From NCBI GenBank assembly GCA_023247255.1, contig JAHFGV010000005.1, positions 6,067 to 70,066 of the forward strand: DNA of 64,000 nt, written 5' to 3'. Shown piece after piece: positions 76 through 53,888 of the stretch. Positions within the stretch are counted from its first letter, which is position 1; each line of letters opens with the position of its first letter. Origin of the DNA: Candidatus Omnitrophota bacterium (GTDB taxonomy: Bacteria > Omnitrophota > Gorgyraeia > Aquiviventales > Aquiviventaceae). A model generated the notes under the pieces. That model was given only the letters and a program-made list of their open reading frames with translations. It was not told the DNA's origin and ran no database searches. The position numbers were made by a program, and so were the translations under genes.

Positions 76-1071
76 ATGCCTGATCTTCGTGTGAAGATTG
101 GTTCCCTGACGTTACCGAATCCGGTCTTGGTTGCGGCAGGGACCTTTGGTTACGGCCTTGAGTTTACCTCAGCCATCCGCTTGGATCATCTCGGTGCGTT
201 GATTACAAAAACCTTAACCGCAACGCCGCGATCGGGTCATTTGCCCCCCCGTCTTGCCGTTACTCCTTCAGGGATGCTTAACTCTGTTGGGCTGCAGAAC
301 ATTGGACTTGAGGCATTTCTTGAGACGAAGCTTCCACAACTGCGCCGGTATTCGGTGGCAGTGATCGTAAGCGTGTTGGGGGAATCGGCCAAGGAGCTGG
401 CAGAGATGGTCGGACGAATCGATCGTGCCGATGGCGTTTCCGGAGTCGAACTGAATATGTCGTGTCCCAACCTCGAAGAGGGACAGGGGACGGGGGGCGG
501 GGGGCAGGGGGGGGATTCCAGCATTCCCCTGCCCCCTGTCTCGCGCCCCTTGCCCCGTCTTATTGCGCAGGATGCTGAGGCGACGGCTGCGATGGTGCAG
601 GCGGCCCGGGCAAAAACCAGCAAACTTTTGATCGCGAAATTGAGTCCCGACGTCACCGATCTAAGGCCCATCGCGCGAGCGGCCGAGCGGGCAGGGGCCG
701 ATGCCTTGAGCGTGGGGAATACTTTCATCGGGATGAGCCTGGATCCAGAAACCCGTCGGTCCCGTCTGGGTTCCCTCACCGGCGGTTTAAGCGGACCCGC
801 GATTCGTCCGCTTTCACTTTATAGGGTGTGGTATACTGCCCCGGTTGTTCGCATTCCGGTAATCGGTGCAGGGGGTATCGTACAGGCCAAGGATGCCGTT
901 GAGTATTTCCTGGCCGGAGCCAAAGCCGTTGCAGTGGGTACCGCAAACTTTGTGCGACCGGATGCCGCCAGGCAAATCGTCCACGGTATCGAGCGCTACA
1001 TGATTCGACACAAACTAAGCGCCATACACGAACTTTATGGAGCCATCGATTTCCATTCCCCATGGCCGTAA
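76..1071 (+). CDS. pyrD: Dihydroorotate dehydrogenase catalytic subunit (class 1 PyrD), with an in-frame Gly/Pro-rich insertion of about 25 aa after the NMSCPN motif
   Basis: ORF translation has typical PyrD motifs (GYGLEF, NMSCPN, KLSPDV, IGAGGI). The insertion GQGTGGGGQGGDSSIPLPPVSRPLPR is encoded by a G-rich/C-rich foldback at nt ~479-560. Confidence 0.85.
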   Translation: MPDLRVKIGSLTLPNPVLVAAGTFGYGLEFTSAIRLDHLGALITKTLTATPRSGHLPPRLAVTPSGMLNSVGLQNIGLEAFLETKLPQLRRYSVAVIVSVLGESAKELAEMVGRIDRADGVSGVELNMSCPNLEEGQGTGGGGQGGDSSIPLPPVSRPLPRLIAQDAEATAAMVQAARAKTSKLLIAKLSPDVTDLRPIARAAERAGADALSVGNTFIGMSLDPETRRSRLGSLTGGLSGPAIRPLSLYRVWYTAPVVRIPVIGAGGIVQAKDAVEYFLAGAKAVAVGTANFVRPDAARQIVHGIERYMIRHKLSAIHELYGAIDFHSPWP

Positions 1072-1832
1072 GGCAGCTCAAATCAGGCGTTCCTGTAGAT
1101 TATCGAGGCACGGTTGACCATCCCCGAGTTGCTTCCGACCGTTTGATCGTGGCGTTGGACTCCGCTGATTTGCCATCCGCGCTTGCCATGGCCAGGCGCC
1201 TTAAGGGTATCGTACGGATGGTTAAAATCGGAAGCGTCCTTTTCACCGCTTGTGGGCCTGTGGCGATTCGTAAAATAAAACAGTTGGGCTTCGACGTCAT
1301 GTTGGATTTGAAATTTTTCGATATCCCCTCCACCATCGAGATGAGTTGCCGCGCGGCCGCGCGTCATCGAGTGTCTTTGCTTACGGTGCATGCCACCGGC
1401 CAGCGTCCGATGTTAGAGGCGGCTGTGCGCGGAGCAACCGAGGAGGCTTGGCGTCTTGGCTTGCCTGTTCCAGATGTGCTTGCCGTTACCGTTCTGACCA
1501 GTGTGGGAGAAAACAACCGGCGTTCGATAAGCGCCCAGGTGCTGAGATTGGCTGAGCAAGCAAGACAAGCCCATTGCCCAGGGGTAGTGGCATCCGCACA
1601 GGAAGCGGCGAAGCTTCGCAAGCGTTTTGGCCAGCAGCTGAGGATTCTCTGCCCAGGCATCCGAGCATCCAGCGCTGGAGGGGACGATCAGCACCGGGTG
1701 GCAACACCCAGCCAGGCGCTCTTGGCCGGGGCCGATTGGTTGGTGGTGGGTCGACCCATCACTGCGTCTGTCGATCCGCGTCAGGCTACGAAGCGGATCC
1801 TCAAGGAGATGGAGGCGGCAACGGAATGTTGA
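1062..1832 (+). CDS. pyrF: Orotidine 5'-phosphate decarboxylase; start codon uncertain, overlaps the pyrD stop
   Basis: LIVALD...KIGSVLF...DLKFFDIPSTIE...LTVH motifs typical of PyrF. Confidence 0.8.
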   Translation: MAVRQLKSGVPVDYRGTVDHPRVASDRLIVALDSADLPSALAMARRLKGIVRMVKIGSVLFTACGPVAIRKIKQLGFDVMLDLKFFDIPSTIEMSCRAAARHRVSLLTVHATGQRPMLEAAVRGATEEAWRLGLPVPDVLAVTVLTSVGENNRRSISAQVLRLAEQARQAHCPGVVASAQEAAKLRKRFGQQLRILCPGIRASSAGGDDQHRVATPSQALLAGADWLVVGRPITASVDPRQATKRILKEMEAATEC

Positions 1833-2429: not shown

Positions 2430-2644
2430 GATTGTGTCCTATTCCAAGAGAAGTAATGAGGATTGTGTCATGTTTCATGAGTCATGTGTCATGAGAGACT
2501 GTTTCATGTGTTATGTGTCATGAAAAAAGCAGAAAATAAACAGGCATCTCAAGCACGGCCAAAGTACGCCTTTTGCTTTCCATGACTCATGACACATAAA
2601 ACATGAAACATGACACAGACGTGAGTACTGGAGCTTAGAACCGT
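2430..2644. repeat. Cluster of short inverted/direct repeats built on CATGACACAT / ATGTGTCATG motifs, forming a long imperfect palindrome around a central A-rich core
   Basis: Seen directly: tcatgtttcatgagtcatgtgtcatg (2466-2492) versus catgactcatgacacataaaacatgaaacatgacaca (2581-2617), and a tandem ggattgtgtc duplication at 2431-2470. Confidence 0.6.
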
Positions 2645-2699
2645 GACTCATGAAACAGACGTGAGCACTGCCACTAACCGCGATGCATTTTGAAAACCC
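2645..2699 (+). repeat. 55-bp dispersed repeat, copy 1 (near-identical copy at 40158-40213), immediately upstream of the nuoJ start
   Basis: gactcatgaaacagacgtgagcactgccactaaccgcgatgcattttgaaaaccc versus 40158-40213 with 2 mismatches. Confidence 0.6.
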
Positions 2700-2719
2700 T
2701 CAGATCTAAGAGGTTCACC

Positions 2720-3247
2720 ATGCCTCACGAGTCGATCATCCGAGCCACGGTCGGCGTACTCTTAAGCGGCCTGATCCTCACGGCCGCCTTTTGGGTCGTG
2801 GCGTTACGGAATCTTTTTCGCGCCACCCTCAGCTTAGGGCTTGTCTTGGTCGGGGTGGCTTGTGTCTTTCTTTTGCTTGAAGCGGAGTTCTTGGCATTTG
2901 TTCAGATTTTGGTCTATGTGGGTGCGATTCTGACTTTGGTTGTGTTCGCCGTCATGTTAACGGCTCGTCTGCACATCAGCCCCGCCACACGGGTGACTCA
3001 CCGCCAAGATTCCTGGCTCGCGGGTGCGGCAGCCCTAGCCCTGTTTGGATTATTGGTCTGGGCCACGCAATCGTTGACATTTCCCCAGCGCTTGGCCGTG
3101 GAGTCGGTCCGGTTAACCGCTGTGGGCCAGCAATTCATTACGACTCTGATTTTACCCTTTGAGGCGATCTCCCTGATTTTTGTGGCGGCCATGGTAGGTG
3201 CCATTGCTTTGGTGACTCGTCAATTCCCGCCGTCGGCTGAGCCCTAA
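2720..3247 (+). CDS. nuoJ: NADH-quinone oxidoreductase subunit J
   Basis: RBS aagagg 8 nt upstream of the ATG at 2720. Motif FVQILVYVGAILTLVVFAVML. Confidence 0.8.
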   Translation: MPHESIIRATVGVLLSGLILTAAFWVVALRNLFRATLSLGLVLVGVACVFLLLEAEFLAFVQILVYVGAILTLVVFAVMLTARLHISPATRVTHRQDSWLAGAAALALFGLLVWATQSLTFPQRLAVESVRLTAVGQQFITTLILPFEAISLIFVAAMVGAIALVTRQFPPSAEP

Positions 3248-3287
3248 CAGGTTACAGGAAAATGCCCTGTTTGCTCAAAGCTAACAA

Positions 3288-3550
3288 TGGGGGGAACGGG
3301 GTGGGAGACGTGGGGCGTGGGAGAACAGATTACAAGAGATAAAAAGTCCTACAACCGGTTTTAAAAAAGGGTTCTTCTGGTTTTGCAGTGGGTAAAAGGA
3401 GCAACACTTCCCTCTCCCAAAGGGAGAGGGAGAAGGGCATGCCCATATATCCCGGAAGCGCCTAAAAAAGAACGGGCGATGTCTAGCTTTCAAGATTTAT
3501 GGAGTGCTATTCGCACTTCCCTCGCCCCCCGCCCCGTTCCCTTTACCCCG
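3288..3550. repeat. G-rich / C-rich inverted-repeat element (MITE/REP-like) with an internal perfect 9-bp hairpin, splitting nuoJ from nuoK
   Basis: Arm ggggaacggggtgggagacgtggggcgtgggag (3291-3323) versus arm ccctcgccccccgccccgttccc (3519-3541). Hairpin ccctctccc-aaa-gggagaggg at 3411-3431. Confidence 0.55.
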
Positions 3551-3603
3551 GATGCGGGTTTTTCAGCAGTCTGCTGATAGCAAGGATATTGAAACGTAAA
3601 CTC

Positions 3604-3903
3604 ATGGAGCTGCGGATTCTACTTTGGTTGTCTTGCGGTTTGTTCTCGATTGGGGTCTACGGGATGCTGACTCGGCGACACGCGATCGGTCTTTTGCTTG
3701 CCCTGGAACTCATGCTCAACGCCGCGGCCTTGAACTTCGTGCTCTTTAGTCGATGGTTCGGCCATGTGCAGGCGCAAGCCTTCGCGCTTTTCATCATCGC
3801 CCTGGCTGCCTGTGAGGCGGTGGTTGGGCTTGCGATTATCATCAGCCTGGCCCGCAGCGCCCACACCGTACTCGTCGATGAAGCGAGCCTCTTAAAAGGA
3901 TGA
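3604..3903 (+). CDS. nuoK: NADH-quinone oxidoreductase subunit K
   Basis: MELRILLWLS...LELMLNAAALNFV, about 99 aa. Confidence 0.85.
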   Translation: MELRILLWLSCGLFSIGVYGMLTRRHAIGLLLALELMLNAAALNFVLFSRWFGHVQAQAFALFIIALAACEAVVGLAIIISLARSAHTVLVDEASLLKG

Positions 3904-5849: not shown

Positions 5850-6330
5850 CACGGGATGCTAGAGTGCCTAACATAATGATCGCATGGTCGCGCTGGGCGT
5901 AATTGCTTCGATGCGCAAGACGCCAGGAGGAAGCCGTACTGATCCATAGAAGTACGGTGACGACGAGCAACGCAGCGCGGCGAAGCAATTCCGCCCAGCC
6001 CTTAGGGTTGCACTGAAAGATGGCCATCTGCTGCGTCGTTCCTCCTCGGCGTAGCGCTCCTTCGGCTACGCCTTCGTCGTCACTCCTTGCATCTGGGCCA
6101 TCTTTCAGTGCAACGCGGCCATGTGCTCATTATGTTAGGCACTCTTAGGCTGCTCAAAAAGGTGCGAGATGCAAGGCGCAGCTCGATTCGGCTGAGTCCT
6201 TTGACTATCGCTCAGGACTCAGCCCTGAGCAACGTCGAAGGGCTGAGGAGGCGCGTACTTTCAAGTACGCTGACGAAGCCGTCAGGCATACAACGCAGCA
6301 GATGTGTCTTTTTCAGCAGCCTGCTTAGGG
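5850..6330. repeat. Hairpin-dense nested inverted-repeat element (MITE-like or structured RNA) in the nuoL-nuoM intergenic region
   Basis: Terminal inverted repeat agagtgcctaacataatga (5861-5879) / tcattatgttaggcactct (6126-6144). Inner inverted repeat gttgcactgaaagatggcc (6007) / ggccatctttcagtgcaac (6097). Further hairpins at 5893/5979, 5933-5960, 6181-6215 and 6247-6290. Confidence 0.6.
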
Positions 6331-11780: not shown

Positions 11781-11885
11781 ATTTTCGATTTTGGGCTGAG
11801 AGAATTTTCGATTGTAGATTTTAGATTGTCGATTGGAAAACACGACAAATCGACAATCGAAAATTGACAATCGACGATTCGTTGG
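11781..11885. repeat. Palindromic AATCGACAATCG repeat cluster (same family as 19266-19350)
   Basis: ttttcgattgtagattttagattgtcgattgg...aaatcgacaatcgaaaattgacaatcgacgattcg. Confidence 0.5.
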
Positions 11886-11940
11886 GCCTTAAGCCAAAAG
11901 CCTTGAGCAAACAGATATTTTCCGTAGCCTGCTAGTACGA

Positions 11941-19265: not shown

Positions 19266-19350
19266 ATCAAGAGAGCCGAGGGAATTGTCGATTGACGATT
19301 GTCGATTTTTGATTGAACGGCCGTCTTCCAATCGACAATCCAAAATCGAC
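19266..19350. repeat. Palindromic AATCGACAATCG repeat cluster (same family as 11781-11885)
   Basis: attgtcgattgacgattgtcgatttttgattg...caatcgacaatccaaaatcgacaatcgaaaatt. Confidence 0.45.
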
Positions 19351-19434
19351 AATCGAAAATTCCCAGGCTGTTTCATGATTCCTTAGGCGAGGCGGATGGC
19401 CGACCGGAACGAGCCGAAGGCGAGTGAAGGCGCC

Positions 19435-19450
19435 GAGTCCTCCACCGCCC
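19435..19450 (+). repeat. 16-nt direct repeat of the tRNA-Val 3' end (att-like remnant)
   Basis: gagtcctccaccgccc is identical to 19197-19212. Confidence 0.5.
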
Positions 19451-19516
19451 GTATAAATTTTGCTTCGAAATGTGAGTGACCCGTTCATTAGTTTTATAGA
19501 TAAAGGACATTAGGAT

Positions 19517-20803
19517 ATGTGTGCGCGACTTGTTTTATTCGTTATTAGTCTGCTCCTCGGTTGGTTCAGTAGTCACAGGTTTTGTGCCGCTCAATCCCAA
19601 ACATCCGTTGCCCAAGATTCCAGCGGTTCGTACAACGCCGGGCTCACGCTGGTCGATGTTCCTTATCCGTCGGGGCGCGGTGAGGAAGCGATCATCACAA
19701 CGGCGGTGTGGTATCCGACCCGACAAGCCCAGGATGAATACGCCTATCGATTGACCCAAGACTATATCAGCCAAGTCGCACTGGATGCTCCGGTTGCTCC
19801 AGGAGAGCCTTATCCTTTGGTTATCTATATCCACGGTGGTTTCTCCTCCGGATTCGCCTCATCGTTTTTCACGGAGGAGCTGGCCCGTCACGGCTATGTG
19901 GTGGTGGCCCCGGATTATGTGGATACGATCCCACCGGATTATACGCAGTCCTTGGCCTTCAGCCGGATGCGCCAGGGAAAGACTGCCCGGAATATCCAGG
20001 TTCTCAAAGCCGCCAAGCAATGGGTGGCTGACATGAACGCGGATTCAGATTTCTTTCTCTCTTATCTGGCGGCCCATCGGCTTCCGCAGACCTCGTTTAT
20101 CATCGACTGGATGCTCAGGCAGAATGCTCAGTCTAGCTCGATGTTCTACCAGGCTGTTGATTCCCAGGCGATCGGAGCCATTGGCTGGTCTGAGGGAGGC
20201 GTGACTATTTTGGCAAAGATTGGAGCCCATCCCGATCCATCCGTTCAGGATTCCAGGATCCGCGCAGCCCTGTTACTTTCATCTCCCGCCTTTCCGGATC
20301 GGTTTCAGCGGATTCGCATTCCCATCATGCTCATGGCTGGAGACGATGATGCTCCGGCAGTTCACCCTGAGAATCCCAGGCGTTTGATTGTTGACCAAGC
20401 GCCGGCGCAGAAATATCACCTCGTCCTTAAAGACACGAACCACTTTGATTTTGGTAACCGCGTCTGTGGCAACACCCCGTTGTATCTAGCCGTTACCCAA
20501 AAACCCAAGGCTCGGGTGATTTTCCAGTATGGGTATACCTTTTTTCAAAAACATCTACGTGGGGATTCCTCAGCCGACCGACGATTGACGCAAGCGGATT
20601 CTCTTTTAGCGTATTATCTATACGACACGAATCCTGCGGCCGAAGGGGTGGTTGAATTTGGAAAGGAGCCAGTATCCTCGGGCCGATCTTTAGGATTGGG
20701 TCATCGATTGCGTCAGCGGTCTGGATCGCAAGAGCAAGGTGGGGGAGGATCCAGCCGGCCGCTACGTCAGTTATTTCAGCGCTTGCGCAATCGCTCCGAA
20801 TAA
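19517..20803 (+). CDS. Secreted alpha/beta-hydrolase (dienelactone hydrolase / PAF-acetylhydrolase-like)
   Basis: Signal peptide. GWSEGG nucleophile elbow (GxSxG). 428 aa. Confidence 0.6.
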   Translation: MCARLVLFVISLLLGWFSSHRFCAAQSQTSVAQDSSGSYNAGLTLVDVPYPSGRGEEAIITTAVWYPTRQAQDEYAYRLTQDYISQVALDAPVAPGEPYPLVIYIHGGFSSGFASSFFTEELARHGYVVVAPDYVDTIPPDYTQSLAFSRMRQGKTARNIQVLKAAKQWVADMNADSDFFLSYLAAHRLPQTSFIIDWMLRQNAQSSSMFYQAVDSQAIGAIGWSEGGVTILAKIGAHPDPSVQDSRIRAALLLSSPAFPDRFQRIRIPIMLMAGDDDAPAVHPENPRRLIVDQAPAQKYHLVLKDTNHFDFGNRVCGNTPLYLAVTQKPKARVIFQYGYTFFQKHLRGDSSADRRLTQADSLLAYYLYDTNPAAEGVVEFGKEPVSSGRSLGLGHRLRQRSGSQEQGGGGSSRPLRQLFQRLRNRSE

Positions 20804-21067
20804 ATTTCGCTGCGCGAATCTATCAGTACCGAACACGTTCAAACCGAGGTGGACGGAAGCTGCGATTCACGATACTATCGTCACTCCGACTGAAATCAGA
20901 GATTTTCTCCGTTACGCGTTTCGCATTGCACGGTTTTTCAGGAGGCGCAGCTCAATGGGTTAGGCGTAGCCCCCGCAGCTTTGATCTGTCCCTAGAAATC
21001 GCGAAGCGATTTCAGGGATCAAATCCGAAATGCTTTGCATTCCATGGGACGAAGCAAATCAGTGGGA

Positions 21068-21106
21068 GGTGGCGGCCTATCGAGCCGTAGGTTGCGGGTT
21101 AGAGCC
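21068..21106 (+). repeat. Partial copy of tRNA-Asp (anticodon arm to T arm) - att-type duplication for the downstream inserted segment
   Basis: ggtggcggcctatcgagccgtaggttgcgggttagagcc versus tRNA-Asp agtggcggcctgtcgagccgtaggttgcgggttcgagcc (3 mismatches). A weaker tRNA-5'-like fragment lies at 20945-20974. Confidence 0.6.
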
Positions 21107-21134: not shown

Positions 21135-22136
21135 TTGCACAATTGCCCAATTTGTAGCATCCTATCCTTAACGCAGAGGAGGAACAAAGGCATGCTACGA
21201 TTTGCCAAACTCGTGCACCACCCGAGGAAACTCTACAGAATGACGGGACTTACGCTTGACCAGTTCCAGACGCTGACGAATCGGCTCACCCCGCTGTGGG
21301 AGCAAGCGGAACGGATGTGCCTCTCGCAGCGCAAGCGAAAGCCACGCCATCGGGAAAGAGTACCAAGTACAAGCTCTCCACGATGGCGGACAAACTCCTG
21401 TGCGTGCTCAGCTTCTACCGCTTCTACCTCTACCTTTGAGCTGCTCGGCTATCTCGTCGGCCTGGATGCCAGCAATATCTGTCGGCTAAAGCCTCGGCTC
21501 GAACCGCTCATTGAGCAGGCAGCCGATCCAAGCCTGGGGCTGTCGCTCCGCCGTCGGCTCCCGCCCGGCGTCAAGAGAATCGGCACCTGGGAGGAACTCG
21601 TGGAGCGCTGTCCGGACTTCGCAGACGTGGTCACTGATGCGACCAAGCAGGCACGACTCCGTCCACCGCGACGCACCCAGCGGCGCTGGTACTCCGGCAA
21701 ACGTAAGCGCCACACACTCAAGACGCAGTTGAGCATCACTCGGCAGAGTGGCCGGATCCTCCATATCAGTTCAACCGTCCCGGGCCGTGTCCATGACTAC
21801 GCGCTCTTGAAGCGGACGCGACTGGACGAACGGCTGCCGCCGAAGACGCGCCTCACCCTGGATCGGGGGTATGATGGTGCCATGACGGACTATCCGACTC
21901 CCGCTATCGCGCTGCCCGTCAAGCGTCGAGGCAACCACCAGGTCCTGACGCGCTCGGAGCGGGCATTCAACCGCCTCCAGGCGCGGCAGCGGATCATCGT
22001 GGAGCATGTCCCAAGTTGCGTGAAGAAGTACCAGCTCCTCGCGCAGGTCTACCGCCACCGGATCGCGGACTACAACCACCGCTTTCGCAACATTGCGGCC
22101 TTGACGAACTTCCGCCTAACGCCGACGGTGACGTAA
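21135..22136 (+). mobile_element. IS5-family (DDE) transposase gene. The ORF is open, but an approximately 95-nt internal stretch reads in the ancestral frame only when shifted
   Basis: LTLDQF...LWEQAE...RKRK...YSGKRKRHTLK motifs. The conserved KLSTMADKLLCVLSFYRFYL block appears only in an alternate frame around 21345-21435, then returns to TFELLGYLVG. Confidence 0.7.
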
Positions 22137-22178: not shown

Positions 22179-22198
22179 TGCGCAATAGGTCTATTGAA
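22179..22198 (+). repeat. 20-bp direct repeat, copy 1 (tgcgcaataggtctattgaa)
   Basis: Identical 20-mer at 24102-24121. Confidence 0.5.
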
Positions 22199-23768: not shown

Positions 23769-23842
23769 GGGGGCGTAGCTCAATTGGTTAGAGTGGCGGC
23801 CTGTCGAGCCGTAGGTTGCGGGTTCGAGCCCCGTCGCCCCCG
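23769..23842 (+). tRNA. tRNA-Asp (anticodon GTC)
   Basis: Manual cloverleaf: acceptor GGGGGCG/CGCCCCC, anticodon arm GCGGC-CTGTCGA-GCCGT, T arm GCGGG-TTCGAGC-CCCGT, discriminator G. Confidence 0.85.
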
Positions 23843-24101: not shown

Positions 24102-24121
24102 TGCGCAATAGGTCTATTGAA
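24102..24121 (+). repeat. 20-bp direct repeat, copy 2 (tgcgcaataggtctattgaa)
   Basis: Identical to 22179-22198. Confidence 0.5.
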
Positions 24122-33032: not shown

Positions 33033-34550
33033 ATGAACCACACATCGATGCCAAAACCCCCCAGCCTCTTGCGCAACCCGCTGAGCTTTTTCGGCCTCGC
33101 CGTCGCCATCACGAGCACGGCGTTTGGCCTGCCCATGATGTTCGTCGACATGTTCAGTCGACGCACGCATCCGTATCTTGCTGTGCTCGTTTATCTCGTG
33201 CTGCCGTTCGTTGCAGCAGGCGGCGTCGGCTTAGTCCTGCTTGGAGCATTGTGGGAACGCCGTCGAAGACGCCGACGGCCTGGCATGGTAGTGCCACCCC
33301 TGCCATCCATCGATCTCAATCGAAGCGCCCACCAGATTGCTGTGGCTGGAGCACTCACAACGTTCATGACTATTGTGGCCATGCTCTCCGTGACCGGCTA
33401 CCGGGCGTACCACTTTACGGAGTCGGTCAAATTCTGCGGCCTGGTCTGTCACCAGGTGATGAAACCGGAGTATACGGCGTATCAGTATTCTCCGCATGCG
33501 CGCGTGGCCTGCACCCAGTGCCATGTCGGGCCTGGTGCAAGCTGGTTCGTGCGCTCAAAGATCACAGGAGCGTATCAGGTTTACGCGGTTACATTCAACA
33601 AGTACCCGCGCCCGATTCCCACACCCGTGAAGAGCCTGCGTCCGGCGCAAGAAACTTGCGAGCAATGCCACTGGCCGGCGAAGTTTTTTGGCGCGCAGCA
33701 GAAAACCTTCACGCACTACATGGCGGATGAGCACAACAGCCCGTGGCAGATTCAGATGCTGCTGAAAATCGGCGGCGGCGATCCGTCGGTTGGCGCTCCT
33801 GCGGGCATTCACTGGCACATGAACATCAAGAACGATATTTATTACATTGCCTCAGATGAGCAGCGGGAAACCATTCCGTGGGTGCGCGTGGTCGAGCCGC
33901 AGGGACGCATCGCCGAATATATGTCGATGGAAAGTCCGCTCTCGCCGGAGCAGATCGTAAAGAGCGAAGTGCGCCGCATGGACTGCGTGGATTGCCACAA
34001 CCGGCCCTCCCACATCTTTCGACCGCCGGATCGTGCGGTGGAGGAGGCCTTCGAGACCGGCCGGCTAGAGCGGTCCCTGCCGTATCTGAAGCGCGAAGCC
34101 ATAAGGTTGTTGGCGCAAGAGTACCCCTCGGAGGAGCAGGCGTTATCAGCCATCCTGAAAGGCTTGGCCGAGTTCTACCAGAAGGACTATCCAGAGGTGT
34201 ATCGCGAACAGGCAGTCGCTATTCAACAGGCCACAGCTGAGTTGCAACGCATCTATTCGAGGAATTTCTTTCCCGAGATGCGCGCCGATTGGCGCGCCCA
34301 TCCCAACCACATGGGCCATCTAAATGCCGAAGGCTGCTTCCGCTGCCACGATGGGCTGCACAAAAACCGCGAGGGCAAGGTGCTAACCAAAGACTGTACC
34401 GCCTGTCACACGATCTTGGCCCAGGGGCCACCTGAGGAGGTGGCGCAAGCCAAGCTTGAAGCGCAGCCGTTTCGCCACCCGGTCGACGTGGGGATGGACG
34501 TGACGGAATTTAAGTGCAGCCAGTGTCATACCGGCACGAGCGGTCTCTAG
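33033..34550 (+). CDS. Membrane-anchored heptaheme cytochrome c of the NapC/NirT/ImcH-like type
   Basis: 505 aa. 2-3 N-terminal TM helices. Seven CxxCH motifs. Size and architecture resemble the Geobacter inner-membrane cytochrome ImcH. Confidence 0.6.
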   Translation: MNHTSMPKPPSLLRNPLSFFGLAVAITSTAFGLPMMFVDMFSRRTHPYLAVLVYLVLPFVAAGGVGLVLLGALWERRRRRRRPGMVVPPLPSIDLNRSAHQIAVAGALTTFMTIVAMLSVTGYRAYHFTESVKFCGLVCHQVMKPEYTAYQYSPHARVACTQCHVGPGASWFVRSKITGAYQVYAVTFNKYPRPIPTPVKSLRPAQETCEQCHWPAKFFGAQQKTFTHYMADEHNSPWQIQMLLKIGGGDPSVGAPAGIHWHMNIKNDIYYIASDEQRETIPWVRVVEPQGRIAEYMSMESPLSPEQIVKSEVRRMDCVDCHNRPSHIFRPPDRAVEEAFETGRLERSLPYLKREAIRLLAQEYPSEEQALSAILKGLAEFYQKDYPEVYREQAVAIQQATAELQRIYSRNFFPEMRADWRAHPNHMGHLNAEGCFRCHDGLHKNREGKVLTKDCTACHTILAQGPPEEVAQAKLEAQPFRHPVDVGMDVTEFKCSQCHTGTSGL

Positions 34551-39709: not shown

Positions 39710-39820
39710 CGTTCTCGCCTTCTTCCCTAAGGGATCATGCGCCCAAGGAATTCTCATCTCCTCTTTATCCTTGACCTCCTCTACGGCACATCTTAGTTGT
39801 CCAGCCGACAAAAGGTCTCC

Positions 39821-39834
39821 ATGACGTTCGTCAT
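39821..39834. promoter_or_regulatory. Palindromic candidate operator ATGAC-GTTC-GTCAT (extended CCATGAC..GTCATGGAAGA)
   Basis: Same family as 25044 and 43309. Confidence 0.35.
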
Positions 39835-39927
39835 GGAAGACTCTTATCCGGAGCCGCTATCCTCTTTTTCATGACACATCCGTGAATCACGGCTACAAAT
39901 GGCCGACTTGCTGACGATAAGGTCGTT

Positions 39928-39962
39928 TCTCACAAAGTTCACACCCTGTGAACATTGTGAGA
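39928..39962. promoter_or_regulatory. 16-3-16 inverted repeat TCTCACAAAGTTCACA-ccc-TGTGAACATTGTGAGA upstream of feoB
   Basis: Near-perfect palindrome, one mismatch. Confidence 0.3.
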
Positions 39963-40157
39963 GGTACGTTACCGTCGACGAAGCGTGAAATTCCCGCCAG
40001 GTTTGCAACGGAGCTGTCCGGGAAGCGAGGCCGCTCCGACGAGACAGCGGTTGCCTTCGAACTCAATGTTCCCGGTTCCGTACGGTTTTGCAACACTTCT
40101 CGCTCCGCCATCGACGAGGAGCAGCGTAACTCAGACGCGATTCAGGACATAACACAG

Positions 40158-40213
40158 GACTCATGAAACAGACGTGAGCACTGCCACTAACCTCGATGCA
40201 TTTTGTAAAACCC
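40158..40213 (+). repeat. 55-bp dispersed repeat, copy 2 (see 2645-2699), immediately upstream of feoB
   Basis: Near-identical to copy 1. Confidence 0.6.
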
Positions 40214-40291
40214 CAGTTACGACTGACGCCTTCCAAGTCTTCTTGCACCTGCTGTAGTGAATCCATCTGCTGCAGCGAATCTCGCGAAAGG

Positions 40292-42250
40292 TTGACAGGC
40301 TTGTCTGGCCAGCGTCACACGCCGAGCCTCATCGTAACCGGCAACCCCAACGTCGGGAAAAGCGTCATCTTCCAGCTCCTCACCGGCCGCTACGCCACCG
40401 TGTCGAACTATCCGGGCACCACGGTTGCAGTTACCCGAGGATCGGCTTCGTTAGACGGCCGGGTGGTTCGCGTCTACGACACGCCAGGAATCAATAGCTT
40501 GTTCGCCGCCTCAGAAGATGAGCTGGTCGCACGCGATCTGCTGCTGGGTGAACGAACCACCGTGGTGCAGGTTAGCGATGCCAAGAACCTGCTACGTGCC
40601 CTCACACTGACCTTGGAACTGGCTGAAGCTGGACTTCCATCCGTCCTGGATCTGAACATGATGGACGAAGCCAGGGAACGTCGAATCAGCATTGATACGA
40701 AGAAGCTCTCAGGGTTACTTGGGATCTCGGTTGTGCCGACCATTGCAACGCAGCGGTGGGGTATCGAGCGGTTGCGTCGAGTGATCCTGCAGGCACAGCA
40801 GGCTCGGGTTGGCGTTTGCTACCCCAAAGTGATTGAAGATGCCATTGCCAAGATGGTGGAGGTCCTACCAAAGACGCTGGGCGTACGGAAAGCCCTGGCG
40901 TTGTTCTGGCTTGCTGGGGATCGGAACATCATCGAGCAGCTCAAGAAGCAATTCGACCCATCAATCATCGAGGCGCTGACGGCAATCGCTGCGCAGGCTC
41001 AAGAACAGACCTCTGGCCCATTAGGGTTGCTGATCAGTCAAGCCCGACTCCGCGAGGCCGAGCGACTCGTCAAGCAGGTGATGACGACTGCACCTCTGGA
41101 GCGCCAGCGGTGGTTTTACCGCCTGGGTGATTGGGCGATGCACCCGGTTTGGGGGGTGCCCATCCTCGTTGGCGTCCTGGTCATGATGTACTTCCTCGTC
41201 GGAAATCTCGCAGCTCAGCGTGGCGTAGATTTCCTAGAAGACGTGGTCTTTGGGCGCTACCTCACCCCAGTCTTTCAGTGGGTTGTTCAAGGGGCGATCC
41301 CTTGGGGGTGGCTCAAGGCGCTCTTCATCGGTGAGTACGGCCTGCTGACGATGGCTCTGCCCTACGCTTTTGCGATCATCCTGCCCATCGTGGGGATGTT
41401 CTTTCTCTGCTTCGGATTGCTTGAGGATGTGGGCTACCTTCCTCGACTAGCCGTGATGGCCAATCGCTTTTGTCGGCTCCTGGGTCTCAACGGCAAGGCG
41501 GTGCTCCCACTCGTGCTGGGGTTGGGATGCGACACAATGGCCACGATGACCGCCCGCATCCTCGACTCGGATCGGGATCGGATCATCACAACGCTCTTGT
41601 TGGCACTCGGCATCCCTTGTTCCGCTCAACTGGGCGTCATCCTAGCGATGCTGGCGGGCCGCCCGCCGTTGGCCCTGGGGATTTGGCTTGGCGTGTTACT
41701 CATGGTGATCATTGTGGTTGGTCAAGCCGCGTCAAGAATCCTGCCGGGCGAGGAGAGCCCGTTTCTCTACGAGATCCCACCGCTTCGCACGCCGAAGCTG
41801 TCGAATGTGCTGATCAAGACGCTGGGTCGCATCGAGTGGTATGTGAAAGAAGCCGTCCCGCTGTTCTTCCTGGGAACCCTGGTGTTATTCCTCCTCGATG
41901 TGACAGGAGCCCTGGCGGTCTTCGAGCGAATCGGGACCCCGCTCATTGTCTCGTGGCTCGGGCTGCCAGCCAAAGCGACCAGTGCATTTCTGGTGGGATT
42001 TCTCCGACGGGATTTTGGTGCGGCCGGGCTCTTCGCGCTTCAGCGAAACGGAATGTTATCTGGAGTCCAGACCGTCGTCAGCCTCGTTACCATCACGCTG
42101 TTTGTCCCCTGCATCGCCCAGTACTTCATGATGGTCAAAGAGCGCGGCTGGAAACTCGCAAATCTGATGGCGGGGTTTGTCTTCGGGATGGCGCTGCTTG
42201 TTGGAGGTCTCCTCTTGCGCGTTCTCACCCTGTTGCGAGTTACCCTATGA
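40292..42250 (+). CDS. feoB: Ferrous iron transporter FeoB; probable TTG start at 40292, upstream part of the listed ORF lies in the repeat
   Basis: G-domain GNPNVGKSVIFQLLTG...DTPG. Polytopic C-terminal permease domain. Confidence 0.85.
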   Translation: MTGLSGQRHTPSLIVTGNPNVGKSVIFQLLTGRYATVSNYPGTTVAVTRGSASLDGRVVRVYDTPGINSLFAASEDELVARDLLLGERTTVVQVSDAKNLLRALTLTLELAEAGLPSVLDLNMMDEARERRISIDTKKLSGLLGISVVPTIATQRWGIERLRRVILQAQQARVGVCYPKVIEDAIAKMVEVLPKTLGVRKALALFWLAGDRNIIEQLKKQFDPSIIEALTAIAAQAQEQTSGPLGLLISQARLREAERLVKQVMTTAPLERQRWFYRLGDWAMHPVWGVPILVGVLVMMYFLVGNLAAQRGVDFLEDVVFGRYLTPVFQWVVQGAIPWGWLKALFIGEYGLLTMALPYAFAIILPIVGMFFLCFGLLEDVGYLPRLAVMANRFCRLLGLNGKAVLPLVLGLGCDTMATMTARILDSDRDRIITTLLLALGIPCSAQLGVILAMLAGRPPLALGIWLGVLLMVIIVVGQAASRILPGEESPFLYEIPPLRTPKLSNVLIKTLGRIEWYVKEAVPLFFLGTLVLFLLDVTGALAVFERIGTPLIVSWLGLPAKATSAFLVGFLRRDFGAAGLFALQRNGMLSGVQTVVSLVTITLFVPCIAQYFMMVKERGWKLANLMAGFVFGMALLVGGLLLRVLTLLRVTL

Positions 42251-49826: not shown

Positions 49827-51057
<1,231 letters not shown>

Positions 51058-51087
51058 ATTTTGCTGCGCAACATTTATTAACCGGAT

Positions 51088-53172: not shown

Positions 53173-53888
53173 CGCGCGTCAGGGTTCTTTGGGGTGTGAT
53201 CGCGTAGGGTACGTGGTGGGATGACAATTCGAAACGACGCTCCGAGTTCAGCGACCTAAGCTCGCGTGATGGCGGGGATGGTCCCTGAACCCCTGTCCCA
53301 CACGCAACGCCGCGTGTAGGACCGGGCCGGGAAGGAAACGACTCGGCCTCCTCGTGTTCGGAAAGGAGACGGCAGGCTGGAGTATCGTCAAGCCAGCTTC
53401 TCTTTCCACACGAGGAGCTGGCTTGTTTCGTCACTGAGGGACGGTACCCGATGCAGGAACAACGTGTGACGCTCTGGTGCAAGGTGTTGGGTCGGCTGGT
53501 TGAGGTGGTCATCGCCAGGAATCACCATGCCCAGCCACCAGTCCCAGGGGTCCCTGAAGGCTGGAAGGTAACGGAGTGTCTGGAGAAAGACACGCCGTGT
53601 TTTGGCAAGGGCTGTCCGTTCACTACGGATGGTGGAGAGTCCCCCTTTGGGGAGGCGGGCGAGCTGCCCGATCTCTCCTCTGAGTCGTTCGATCCGCTCG
53701 CTGAACCAGGGTCTGAGGGAAAGGGTAGTTGACCCCACCACCTGTCTGTCAAGGCAGCTCCGTTGTTCCACGCTGACAGGATGCCTTGATGGACGTGACA
53801 GGGAATCGGACACGATGTTTCGGTATACAGTAAAAAGATTAGTAGGCACGTCCAAGACCGCCGTCTGCGGTTCCAGCCAGGTGGTGCG

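Follow-up and report, generated by a model that had tools for sequence, protein, structure and literature searches.

The window analysed here, that is, the whole stretch of 64,000 nucleotides (64 kb) from an Omnitrophota genome, contains two loci that share a short sequence block. At the first locus, pyrD, pyrF and a gene for a pyrE-like phosphoribosyltransferase are followed by nuoJ, which encodes complex I chain 6 (Oxidored_q3), and the genes identified after nuoJ are nuoK, nuoL, nuoM and nuoN (Pfam). At the second locus, genes for ResB and CcsA lie upstream of feoB, and immediately 3′ of feoB lies the gene for a DtxR-like repressor that carries a FeoA domain. The interval in front of nuoJ is occupied by a palindrome, by local tandem duplications and by one copy of the block, and the other copy lies at the start of feoB (Table 1).

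Table 1. Coordinates of genes and sequence features at the nuoJ and feoB loci (positions in the window).
Feature	Position	Strand	Description	Method
pyrD	76-1071			Pfam
pyrF	1062-1832			Pfam
pyrE-like phosphoribosyltransferase gene	ends 2422			Pfam
Tandem duplication	2408-2441 and 2442-2475	+	units of 31-34 nt, 3-nt indel	repeat search
Left arm of palindrome	2452-2523	+	TGTGTCA/TCATGNN heptads (8.3 copies, 2464-2522) and outer part AGTAATGAGGATTGTG	
A-rich central core, apical region of the hairpin	2524-2578	+	partly self-paired, AAAGCA/TGCTTT	
Right arm of palindrome	2579-2630	+	five CATGAYA heptads (2581-2617), then CAGACGTGAGTACTG	
40-nt tandem repeat	2599-2638 and 2639-2678	+	first 32 nt of the units 81% identical	repeat search
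Block, copy A	2645-2703	+	59 nt; ATG 2650 (MKQT, then TGA), in-frame ATG 2683	
uORF	2683-2709	+	8 codons, MHFENPQI, then stop; opens at the second ATG of the block	
nuoJ (complex I chain 6, Oxidored_q3)	2720-3247	+	ATG 2720	Pfam
ResB and CcsA genes	CcsA gene ends 39709			Pfam
Diverged partial copy of the 5′ half of the block, with heptad motif	39865-39893	+	feoB intergenic region	
Block, copy B	40158-40218	+	61 nt; ATG 40163 (MKQT, then TGA), feoB ATG 40196	
feoB	40196-42250	+	FeoB_N, Gate and FeoB_C domains	Pfam

A palindrome of heptanucleotide units upstream of nuoJ

The original prediction placed a long imperfect palindrome upstream of nuoJ, and our analysis agrees with this description: the structure spans approximately 180 nt and consists of 7-nt tandem units, CATGAYA and TGTGTCA, around an A-rich core. 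According to a repeat search, the palindrome arms at 2452-2495 and 2586-2629 (44 nt) are 82% complementary, and the inner arms at 2500-2523 and 2587-2610 are 96% complementary. Each arm harbors a period-7 array identified by TRF, with the consensus TGTGTCA and 69% matches in the left arm and with 5.3 copies of the consensus CATGACA and 83% matches in the right arm. The sequence TCATGWNWCATG occurs seven times compared with an expectation of 0.15, and every occurrence falls inside 2468-2613. The density of CATG at the palindrome reaches 11 per 200 nt, compared with a window mean of 0.87. Across the window, CATG is not under-represented (observed/expected 0.95), and a restriction-avoidance signal was ruled out. 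The unusual feature of the palindrome is that the CATGAYA unit contains the self-complementary hexamer TCATGA; therefore, units in the direct and inverted registers can both pair. The 326-nt region folds at −101.8 kcal/mol, compared with −75.2 ± 5.4 kcal/mol for shuffled sequences (z = −4.9).

Two tandem duplications are present at the palindrome. The upstream duplication (2408-2475) spans the final codons and the TAA stop (2420-2422) of the gene for the pyrE-like phosphoribosyltransferase (Pfam), and the downstream 40-nt repeat (2599-2678) joins the right arm of the palindrome to the block. In the right arm, CAGACGTGAGTACTG reproduces part of the 5′ half of the block in diverged form; the two units of the 40-nt repeat imply that 2609-2630 represents a partial third copy of this half, and nhmmer reports a partial match to the block at 2609-2631 (E = 0.005).

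The block shared by nuoJ and feoB

A block in front of nuoJ was predicted to recur before feoB, and this recurrence is real. The 48-mer at 2645-2692 reappears, with a single mismatch, at 40158-40205 of the same strand, and a match of this kind appeared in none of 100 dinucleotide-preserving shuffles. The full homologous segments, 59 and 61 nt in length, contain 57 identical positions, a single substitution (G2680/T40193) and two 1-nt indels, both near the 3′ end, and constitute the longest dispersed repeat of the 64-kb window. The location at start codons was likewise described correctly: the distance from the end of the block to the nuoJ ATG is 16 nt, and the feoB ATG lies inside the block. 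A simple explanation for such a pair is that it lies within a longer duplicated segment. The similarity ends at 2645/40158 on one side and at 2703/40218 on the other and, because the flanks are unrelated on both sides, a longer duplication around the block is excluded. A profile search of the 64 kb recovered the two full copies and one partial copy. Another, marginal profile match at 33648-33691 (E = 0.044), in a multihaem cytochrome gene with a run of CxxCH codons, was judged to be a chance match, and an internal duplication of approximately 42 nt within the block was unsupported. The palindromic motif TCATG-N7-CGTGA occurs four times in total, twice in each of the two intergenic regions (at 2606 and 2646, and at 39869 and 40161). 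The block is a recent duplicate common to exactly two loci within 64 kb, the 3′ flank of the hairpin and the 5′ end of feoB, since the near-identity of just two copies indicates a recent copying event rather than long-term constraint.

At feoB, the block supplies 38 nt of 5′ sequence, the ATG and codons 2-7, and the first seven codons read MHFVKPQ. All FeoB orthologues carry a Cys/His-rich extension of 20-45 residues before the G1 motif, and the FeoB of the window is homologous to them in this extension (for example, ICCSES in the window and LCCDQSES in an orthologue that is 78% identical). Given this N-terminal homology and the absence of any other in-frame start upstream of the extension, ATG 40196 is the only usable feoB start. 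The in-frame TGA at 40175 was ruled out as a selenocysteine codon, and no orthologue has such an N-terminus. Further traces of the nuoJ locus occur in the feoB intergenic region. In the segment at 39865-39893, TTTTTCATGACACAT is the exact 15-nt reverse complement of 2513-2527, and TCATGACACATCCGTGA is 82% identical to 40161-40177; a diverged partial copy lies at 39869-39885. There is also an inverted match of 19 nt (79%) between 39856-39874 and 40161-40179.

The contig belongs to a metagenome-assembled genome (MAG), and repeats can break assemblies; therefore, a chimeric join by the assembler deserves consideration as the origin of the palindrome and the repeat. The same population is present in two ENA assemblies and one Logan assembly with 99.95-99.99% identity over window positions 30196-52250. 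The Logan contig L007 begins at position 40163. Beyond the exact 35-mer common to both copies, this is precisely where the first 31-mer specific to the feoB copy starts, a pattern characteristic of a repeat that interrupts a de Bruijn assembly. No population variants were found in the feoB intergenic region, which is uninformative. Against a chimeric join, the feoB region is identical in the independent spanning assemblies L005 and L006, which confirm the feoB copy base for base, and the adjacency of pyrE and nuoJ is the conserved order in relatives. Moreover, the match between the palindrome arms is imperfect (82%) and the palindrome lies inside the contig, which distinguishes it from typical hairpin artefacts. 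We consider an assembly artefact to be very improbable.

Distribution among relatives and in databases

Homologues of NuoL and FeoB assign the window to Omnitrophota, and the nearest non-self relatives show 68% identity for NuoL and 78% for FeoB. Three Omnitrophota genomes (L002, L003 and L004; NuoL 65-66% identical) keep the order pyrD-pyrF-pyrE-nuoJ-nuoK-nuoL-nuoM-nuoN-atp, and neither the palindrome nor the block occurs at nuoJ in any of them. The pyrE-nuoJ gap is 297 nt in the window versus 19, 33 and 84 nt in these relatives; the nuoJ-nuoK gap is 356 nt, whereas the two genes overlap in the relatives; and the nuoL-nuoM gap is 524 nt versus 13-110 nt. The structure upstream of nuoJ is a lineage-specific non-coding insertion of approximately 270 nt in an otherwise tightly packed and conserved cluster, and it is composed of inverted CATGAYA arrays, which form a long imperfect hairpin, and of local tandem duplications of 31-34 nt and 40 nt.

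The ccsA-feoB gap is similarly enlarged, to 486 nt versus 183 nt in L088 and 124 nt in L089 (FeoB 76% and 68% identical, respectively), and the closest FeoB relatives are P0122 and P0124, with 78% and 73% identity. No block was found 5′ of feoB in L008-L013, L088 or L089. Furthermore, comparison of either intergenic region with 86 other loci, 80 of which are FeoB loci from species-representative genomes, revealed no DNA similarity by BLAST or by a profile HMM of the block. The 22-nt core of the block, CATGAMACAGACGTGAGYACTG, has no match in 185,579 species-representative genomes. In the JGI metagenomes it has one match only (L001), in which 24 nt are shared with an intron-rich, eukaryote-like contig, and this match was judged to be due to chance. 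We also considered whether the 5′ end of the block (AACACAGGACTCATGA) is homologous to the feoB starts of L088 and L089. This homology was rejected because the local alignment was not significant relative to shuffles, with the score reached by 30 of 500 and 63 of 1000 shuffles for L088 and by 651 of 1000 for L089. Because the relatives and the representative genomes lack it and the JGI metagenomes yielded a chance match only, the whole structure is, as far as these comparisons indicate, a young feature of one Omnitrophota species or lineage.

Other repeats in the window and the clade

The palindrome is not the only repeat of its kind. TRF reports 15 rows of period-7 arrays in the window, although some rows are overlapping descriptions of one array, and the enlarged nuoJ-nuoK gap contains G-rich and C-rich heptads. 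Arrays of heptamers are common in the clade, within genes as well as between them. The heptad arrays of the relatives use other units, and the hypervariable loop of PyrD contains heptads in all four genomes. In this loop, a G/C-rich inverted repeat at 480-556 was proposed as an insertion in pyrD and rejected, as it encodes the variable loop and the relatives have the loop too. The heptad arrays across the clade indicate that the CATGAYA palindrome is one more instance of a clade-wide active repeat process. A second hairpin family with ATCGACA/CGATTGT units is present at 11790-11890 and 19268-19368, and its two members are approximately 80% identical and share 28 base pairs. A scan of viral contigs with a 17-mer of this family returned 21 matches, which is about the number expected by chance according to a rough estimate and is uninformative.

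These repeats raise the question of whether the palindrome is a small non-autonomous mobile repeat, similar to a MITE, REP/BIME or Correia element, with the block as a right-end module that donates the feoB start. The arms resemble terminal inverted repeats, and the inverted pair at feoB brackets 286 nt, without which the gap would be approximately 162 nt, like the 124-183 nt of the relatives. Further junctions of the nuo operon carry lineage-specific structured inserts. The insert at 5882-6120 is approximately 75-81% identical to sequence at an unrelated locus in the Omnitrophota genome L010, which shows that dispersed elements move in the phylum. The two-copy second hairpin family, the gene for a DDE_Tnp_4 transposase within the window (21135-22136, Pfam), and the exact coincidence of the L007 break with the beginning of unique sequence are all consistent with mobility, and an element with terminal repeats fits the diverged partial copy at 39869-39885 and the 19-nt inverted match about equally well. 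However, no target-site duplication was found: direct repeats are missing on either side of 2452-2629 and of 39856-40179, and the duplications present near the palindrome are arranged in tandem instead of bordering the element. The two putative elements share no internal sequence, the homology between the loci continues for 39 nt past the putative right terminal repeat, and only one full palindrome exists in the 64 kb. In addition, the surroundings of the transposase gene, including the ends of the region that bears it, show no similarity to the palindrome arms within the window, and the core 22-mer is missing from the genomes and metagenomes described above apart from the chance match. A mobile repeat is possible, and we rate it as doubtful.

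Regulatory signals at the two start codons

The block had been interpreted as a regulatory element common to both genes, through which complex I and iron uptake would be linked. We obtained no positive support for this link: the relatives are without the element, and no operator, promoter or Rfam match was detected. A promoter scan found no sigma-70-like site in or beside the block, which speaks against its reading as a promoter (the promoter rules of Omnitrophota may differ), and a terminator scan found nothing in the block. Fur and DtxR/IdeR boxes are absent within three mismatches anywhere in the 64-kb window. No Rfam family was assigned at either locus at the gathering threshold or at E ≤ 10, and permissive thresholds produced only noise-level matches to miRNAs and snoRNAs. 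The sole structure common to both copies of the block is the 6-bp hairpin CUCAUG-N7-CGUGAG. Relative to shuffles, the fold of the feoB copy is not significant (z = −0.15 to −0.37); for the 61-nt block, z = −0.15 for the feoB copy and z = −2.07 for the nuoJ copy.

More can be said for an effect confined to nuoJ. Translation of a short uORF that couples to, or unmasks, a sequestered Shine-Dalgarno (SD) sequence is a general bacterial mechanism. In the window, the TAA of the 8-codon uORF (2707-2709) overlaps the SD of nuoJ, AAGAGG (2708-2713). A hairpin is predicted at 2682-2726 (−12.2 kcal/mol, z = −2.66), in which the 3′ part of the block pairs with the nuoJ SD and AUG; CCUC pairs with GAGG, and GAUGCAU pairs with AUGC.UC around the AUG. 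The advantage of this SD-pairing hairpin over shuffles is modest, as 2 of 200 shuffles fold equally well, and the feoB copy does not form an SD-pairing hairpin like that of nuoJ. The arrangement thus resembles uORF coupling in that the stop of a short uORF overlaps the downstream SD and a hairpin pairs with both SD and AUG; unlike established cases, it is deduced here from sequence alone, and the hairpin is weak (−12 kcal/mol). The coupling of the relatives consists simply of short pyrE-nuoJ gaps (19-84 nt). The suggestion of translational control divides into two parts: a local role at nuoJ is plausible in view of the uORF and the SD pairing, whereas a shared link between complex I and iron is without positive support.

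Several observations nevertheless fit the interpretation of the block as a shared cis-regulatory leader. In that role, it would be an sRNA or protein site, or a translational operator, through which feoB and the distal nuo genes are controlled jointly, for instance by iron. Both copies are on the coding strand and lie on, or within approximately 16 nt of, a start codon, a placement that a random duplication is unlikely to produce and that may reflect selection or function. The copies are near-identical, they open with the common hairpin and its fourfold motif, two per intergenic region, the DtxR-like repressor is encoded next to feoB, and the uORF and SD pairing are found at nuoJ. Other observations count against it. 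The leader is absent in every relative examined despite the conserved gene order and, since there are only two copies and none in relatives, neither covariation nor conservation can be claimed for it. In addition to the missing promoter, operator and Rfam signals and the feoB-copy fold that is no better than shuffles, the downstream contexts differ, in that one and the same ATG of the block starts the protein at feoB but begins a uORF at nuoJ. Furthermore, NuoJ to NuoN are the membrane subunits of complex I and contain no Fe-S clusters, according to textbook knowledge. We regard a shared leader as unlikely, and the structure is not a conserved regulator that joins complex I and iron uptake.

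Discussion

The explanation that we favor combines a hairpin produced by heptad slippage, a recent short ectopic duplication of the block, and a local action between cistrons and through the uORF; as a package, we assign it a probability of roughly one half. According to this explanation, the heptad arrays would have grown by replication slippage, and the block would have been copied recently by a short ectopic duplication. On weak evidence, the 5′ end of feoB was probably the donor and nuoJ the recipient, because the duplicated segment contains AAA CCC (K-P), which can be aligned with the N-termini of several FeoB orthologues that begin MKP.... The argument consists of this two-residue K-P alignment, and the similarity of the block to the DNA at the feoB starts of relatives is not significant (p of about 0.06 at best).

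The element would be transcribed within the pyr-nuo polycistron, in which the imperfect stem of approximately 75 bp may behave as an intercistronic stem-loop, that is, as an RNase III or stability site, a processing site, a partial barrier to transcription, or a site of partial termination. Such a stem would uncouple nuoJ from pyrE. The block, in turn, would provide the ATG that opens the 8-codon uORF finishing on the nuoJ Shine-Dalgarno sequence, and ribosomes that translate the uORF would melt the hairpin that sequesters the SD and AUG and would thereby couple translation into nuoJ. In this manner, the uORF could restore the coupling that the relatives obtain from short pyrE-nuoJ gaps. We infer these roles of the hairpin and the uORF from the nucleotide sequence, and an influence on expression, if there is one, would be confined to the locus and of secondary importance.

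Comparison with known systems supports the placement of the structure among small intergenic repeats. In many bacteria, no other class of SSR is as abundant as the heptamers, which are located near start and stop codons, often within approximately 50 nt of them and between co-oriented genes, and which have been ascribed to slippage (PMC4679880, PMC4692102). Examples of heptanucleotide arrays include the cyanobacterial STRR and the TAACTGA arrays of Beggiatoaceae (PMC4679880) and the GGGNATC arrays of Xanthomonas and Nostoc (PMC4692102). The arrays of the window resemble these SSRs in their 7-nt tandem units present in approximately 4-8 copies, in their mostly intergenic location near the start and stop codons of co-oriented genes, in the lineage-specific sequence of the unit, and in their presumed origin by slippage. 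Both arms are head-to-tail repeats of period 7 with at least three to four copies (TRF), as the definition of heptamer SSRs demands, and the occurrence of many arrays with lineage-specific units is seen in the 15 period-7 TRF rows of the window and the other units of the relatives. Two properties set the structure apart: the two arrays face each other and form a hairpin of approximately 180 nt from a unit that contains the self-complementary TCATGA, and a 59-nt tail of unique sequence is duplicated at a second locus.

REP/BIME elements are thought to affect mRNA stability or termination, and REPs are 20-40 nt in length, G+C-rich, equipped with a GTAG/CGTC head, present in hundreds of copies, and linked to RAYTs (PMC3733652, PMC3184786). 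The palindrome of the window is similar to REP/BIME in being an intra-operon, intergenic, imperfect palindrome that would be co-transcribed and that varies between related genomes (PMC3733652, PMC3184786). Unlike REPs, it is approximately 180 nt long, is built of heptads with A+T-rich units, and lacks a GTAG/CGTC head, and no Y1/RAYT-type transposase was matched in Pfam scans of 36 ORFs of the window.

MITEs offer a further comparison. The structure is, as would be expected of Correia-, ERIC- or BOX-type elements, a small non-coding insert with inverted ends beside start codons that would be co-transcribed. The Correia/NEMIS elements of Neisseria, ERIC, and the BOX/RUP elements of pneumococci are MITEs that remodel 5′ regions. 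MITEs such as Correia/NEMIS, ERIC and BOX/RUP are also covered by a review (PMC3184786). Similar to Correia-type elements, the structure would form an RNase III-type stem and may donate promoters or start signals, and it is modular in the manner of BOX (A-Bn-C). The arms at 2452-2495 and 2586-2629 qualify as terminal inverted repeats. The DDE_Tnp_4 surroundings, in contrast, do not identify an autonomous insertion sequence with the same ends within the window, and the count of dispersed copies in the 64 kb is one full palindrome and two block loci with unrelated internal sequence. Unlike Correia, ERIC and BOX, the element has no target-site duplication, no shared internal sequence, no multi-copy family within the 64 kb, and no sequence similarity to them. 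All tested properties of a conserved RNA leader or riboswitch are lacking, as there is no Rfam family, no conservation upstream of orthologues in the relatives examined, and no stable shared structure.

We therefore file the structure as lineage-specific small intergenic repeats, which are of a known kind, and not as a new regulatory system, because it satisfies the definition of heptamer SSRs and fails the MITE tests that were run (target-site duplication and shared internal sequence), the definition of REPs, and the properties of an RNA leader. In its mode of action, its closest analogues would be heptanucleotide SSR arrays and co-transcribed intergenic palindromes (REP/BIME, Correia and BOX).

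A bolder proposal is that the block represents a portable translation-start cassette, composed of an AUG leader and a small 5′ hairpin, that is redeployed at operon junctions where palindromic insertions broke translational coupling, and that it is in addition a common target of an sRNA or RNA-binding protein that co-controls feoB and the distal complex I genes, for example by iron. We consider this combination improbable, slightly more so than the shared leader discussed above. Should the block indeed serve as a start-codon or uORF cassette that can be reused, it would illustrate how genes regain expression after insertions of this kind.

Conclusions

This case calls for caution, as near-identical short blocks at two gene starts of a MAG can mimic the signal of a regulon, and the twin blocks are best explained here by recent, species-specific repeat dynamics. 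This Omnitrophota genome tolerates structured inserts of 270-520 nt in a respiratory operon that its relatives keep packed and translationally coupled, and in it heptanucleotide arrays shape the intergenic regions as well as a loop of the PyrD protein.

Heptanucleotide repeats within and between genes

PyrD has a hypervariable loop at approximately residues 135-162. Each of the four Omnitrophota genomes compared encodes this loop by tandem arrays of heptanucleotides, and the repeat unit differs from genome to genome (GGGACAG, CCCACGC, GGGTCAA and GCTCGAG/CCTTCAA). We conclude that this segment is an in-frame protein loop whose code consists of heptanucleotide repeat arrays. Heptads also occur between genes. 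The true start of nuoK is the ATG at 3604, which leaves a nuoJ-nuoK gap of 356 nt (3248-3603), and the two genes overlap in the three relatives that share the pyrD-pyrF-pyrE-nuoJKLMN-atp order. A long-range inverted repeat of G-rich and C-rich heptads lies inside this insert; the G-rich array is similar to an array within carB of one of these relatives (L002). The two copies of a second heptad hairpin family share approximately 80% identity and 28 base pairs, and this family was not found in any of the relatives that were fetched. One copy is located 3′ of atpF and the other 3′ of tRNA-Val.

Positions of the repeats, motifs and associated genes (window coordinates unless a relative is named)
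Feature	Position	Remark
PyrD loop arrays	480-556; L002 3367-3397; L003 3171-3198; L004 2698-2772	L002-L004, Omnitrophota relatives
Inverted repeat of G-rich and C-rich heptads	3292-3322 with 3511-3541	long-range
Second hairpin family, two copies	11790-11890; 19268-19368	ATCGACA/CGATTGT heptads
Motif CCRTATAAATTTYGCTKCG, 22 nt, three occurrences	19449-19470; 20796-20817; 51050-51071	77-86% identity
DDE_Tnp_4 transposase gene	21135-22136	tRNA-Asp partial copy directly upstream
Palindrome TCCATGACGTTCGTCATGGA	ccsA-feoB gap	includes CATGAC motif
Palindrome TCTCACAAAGTTCACA-CCC-TGTGAACATTGTGAGA	ccsA-feoB gap	16-nt arms, 94% complementary
Moco (molybdenum cofactor) riboswitch	53228-53385	61.6 bits; gathering score 36

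tRNA-Asp region and other motifs

The body of tRNA-Asp has a partial copy (38 nt, 95%; 21069-21106 versus 23793-23830), and a perfect 20-nt direct repeat, TGCGCAATAGGTCTATTGAA (22179-22198 and 24102-24121), flanks approximately 1.9 kb with the tRNA-Asp inside. At its second copy, this direct repeat overlaps the TTG at which a CRP/FNR-type regulator gene starts. The arrangement looks like a mobile element integrated at tRNA-Asp. The 22-nt motif may be associated with terminators or promoters, and two of its three copies span the stop codons of unrelated genes. The Moco riboswitch is situated approximately 500 nt upstream of a moaA/molybdopterin biosynthesis gene cluster.

Repeated and structured elements near feoB and nuoM

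A Logan contig from the same population (L007) breaks at 40163, exactly at the first 31-mer that, of the two copies of the block shared by nuoJ and feoB, only the feoB copy contains. The contig end is independent evidence that the sample contains the 35-nt exact repeat in two or more contexts. Two further palindromes occur in the ccsA-feoB gap (39818-39837 and 39928-39962). Within feoB, an 18-nt tandem duplication (40246-40281) doubles the hexapeptide (T/I)CCSES in a Cys-rich N-terminal extension, and all Omnitrophota FeoB orthologues carry a variable Cys/His-rich extension of 20-45 residues at the N terminus.

The enlarged nuoL-nuoM gap holds a structured element of approximately 230 nt (5882-6120), for which Rfam gave no match. 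The element matches positions 2833-3042 (minus strand) of L010, a locus from another Omnitrophota MAG (JACOVG010000015.1), with 75-81% identity (E = 1.5e-31), and the match lies directly upstream of the feoB start and overlaps it on the opposite strand. Their consensus fold comprises 54 pairs, nine of which show compensatory changes. We regard the element as a candidate dispersed structured element or noncoding RNA of Omnitrophota.
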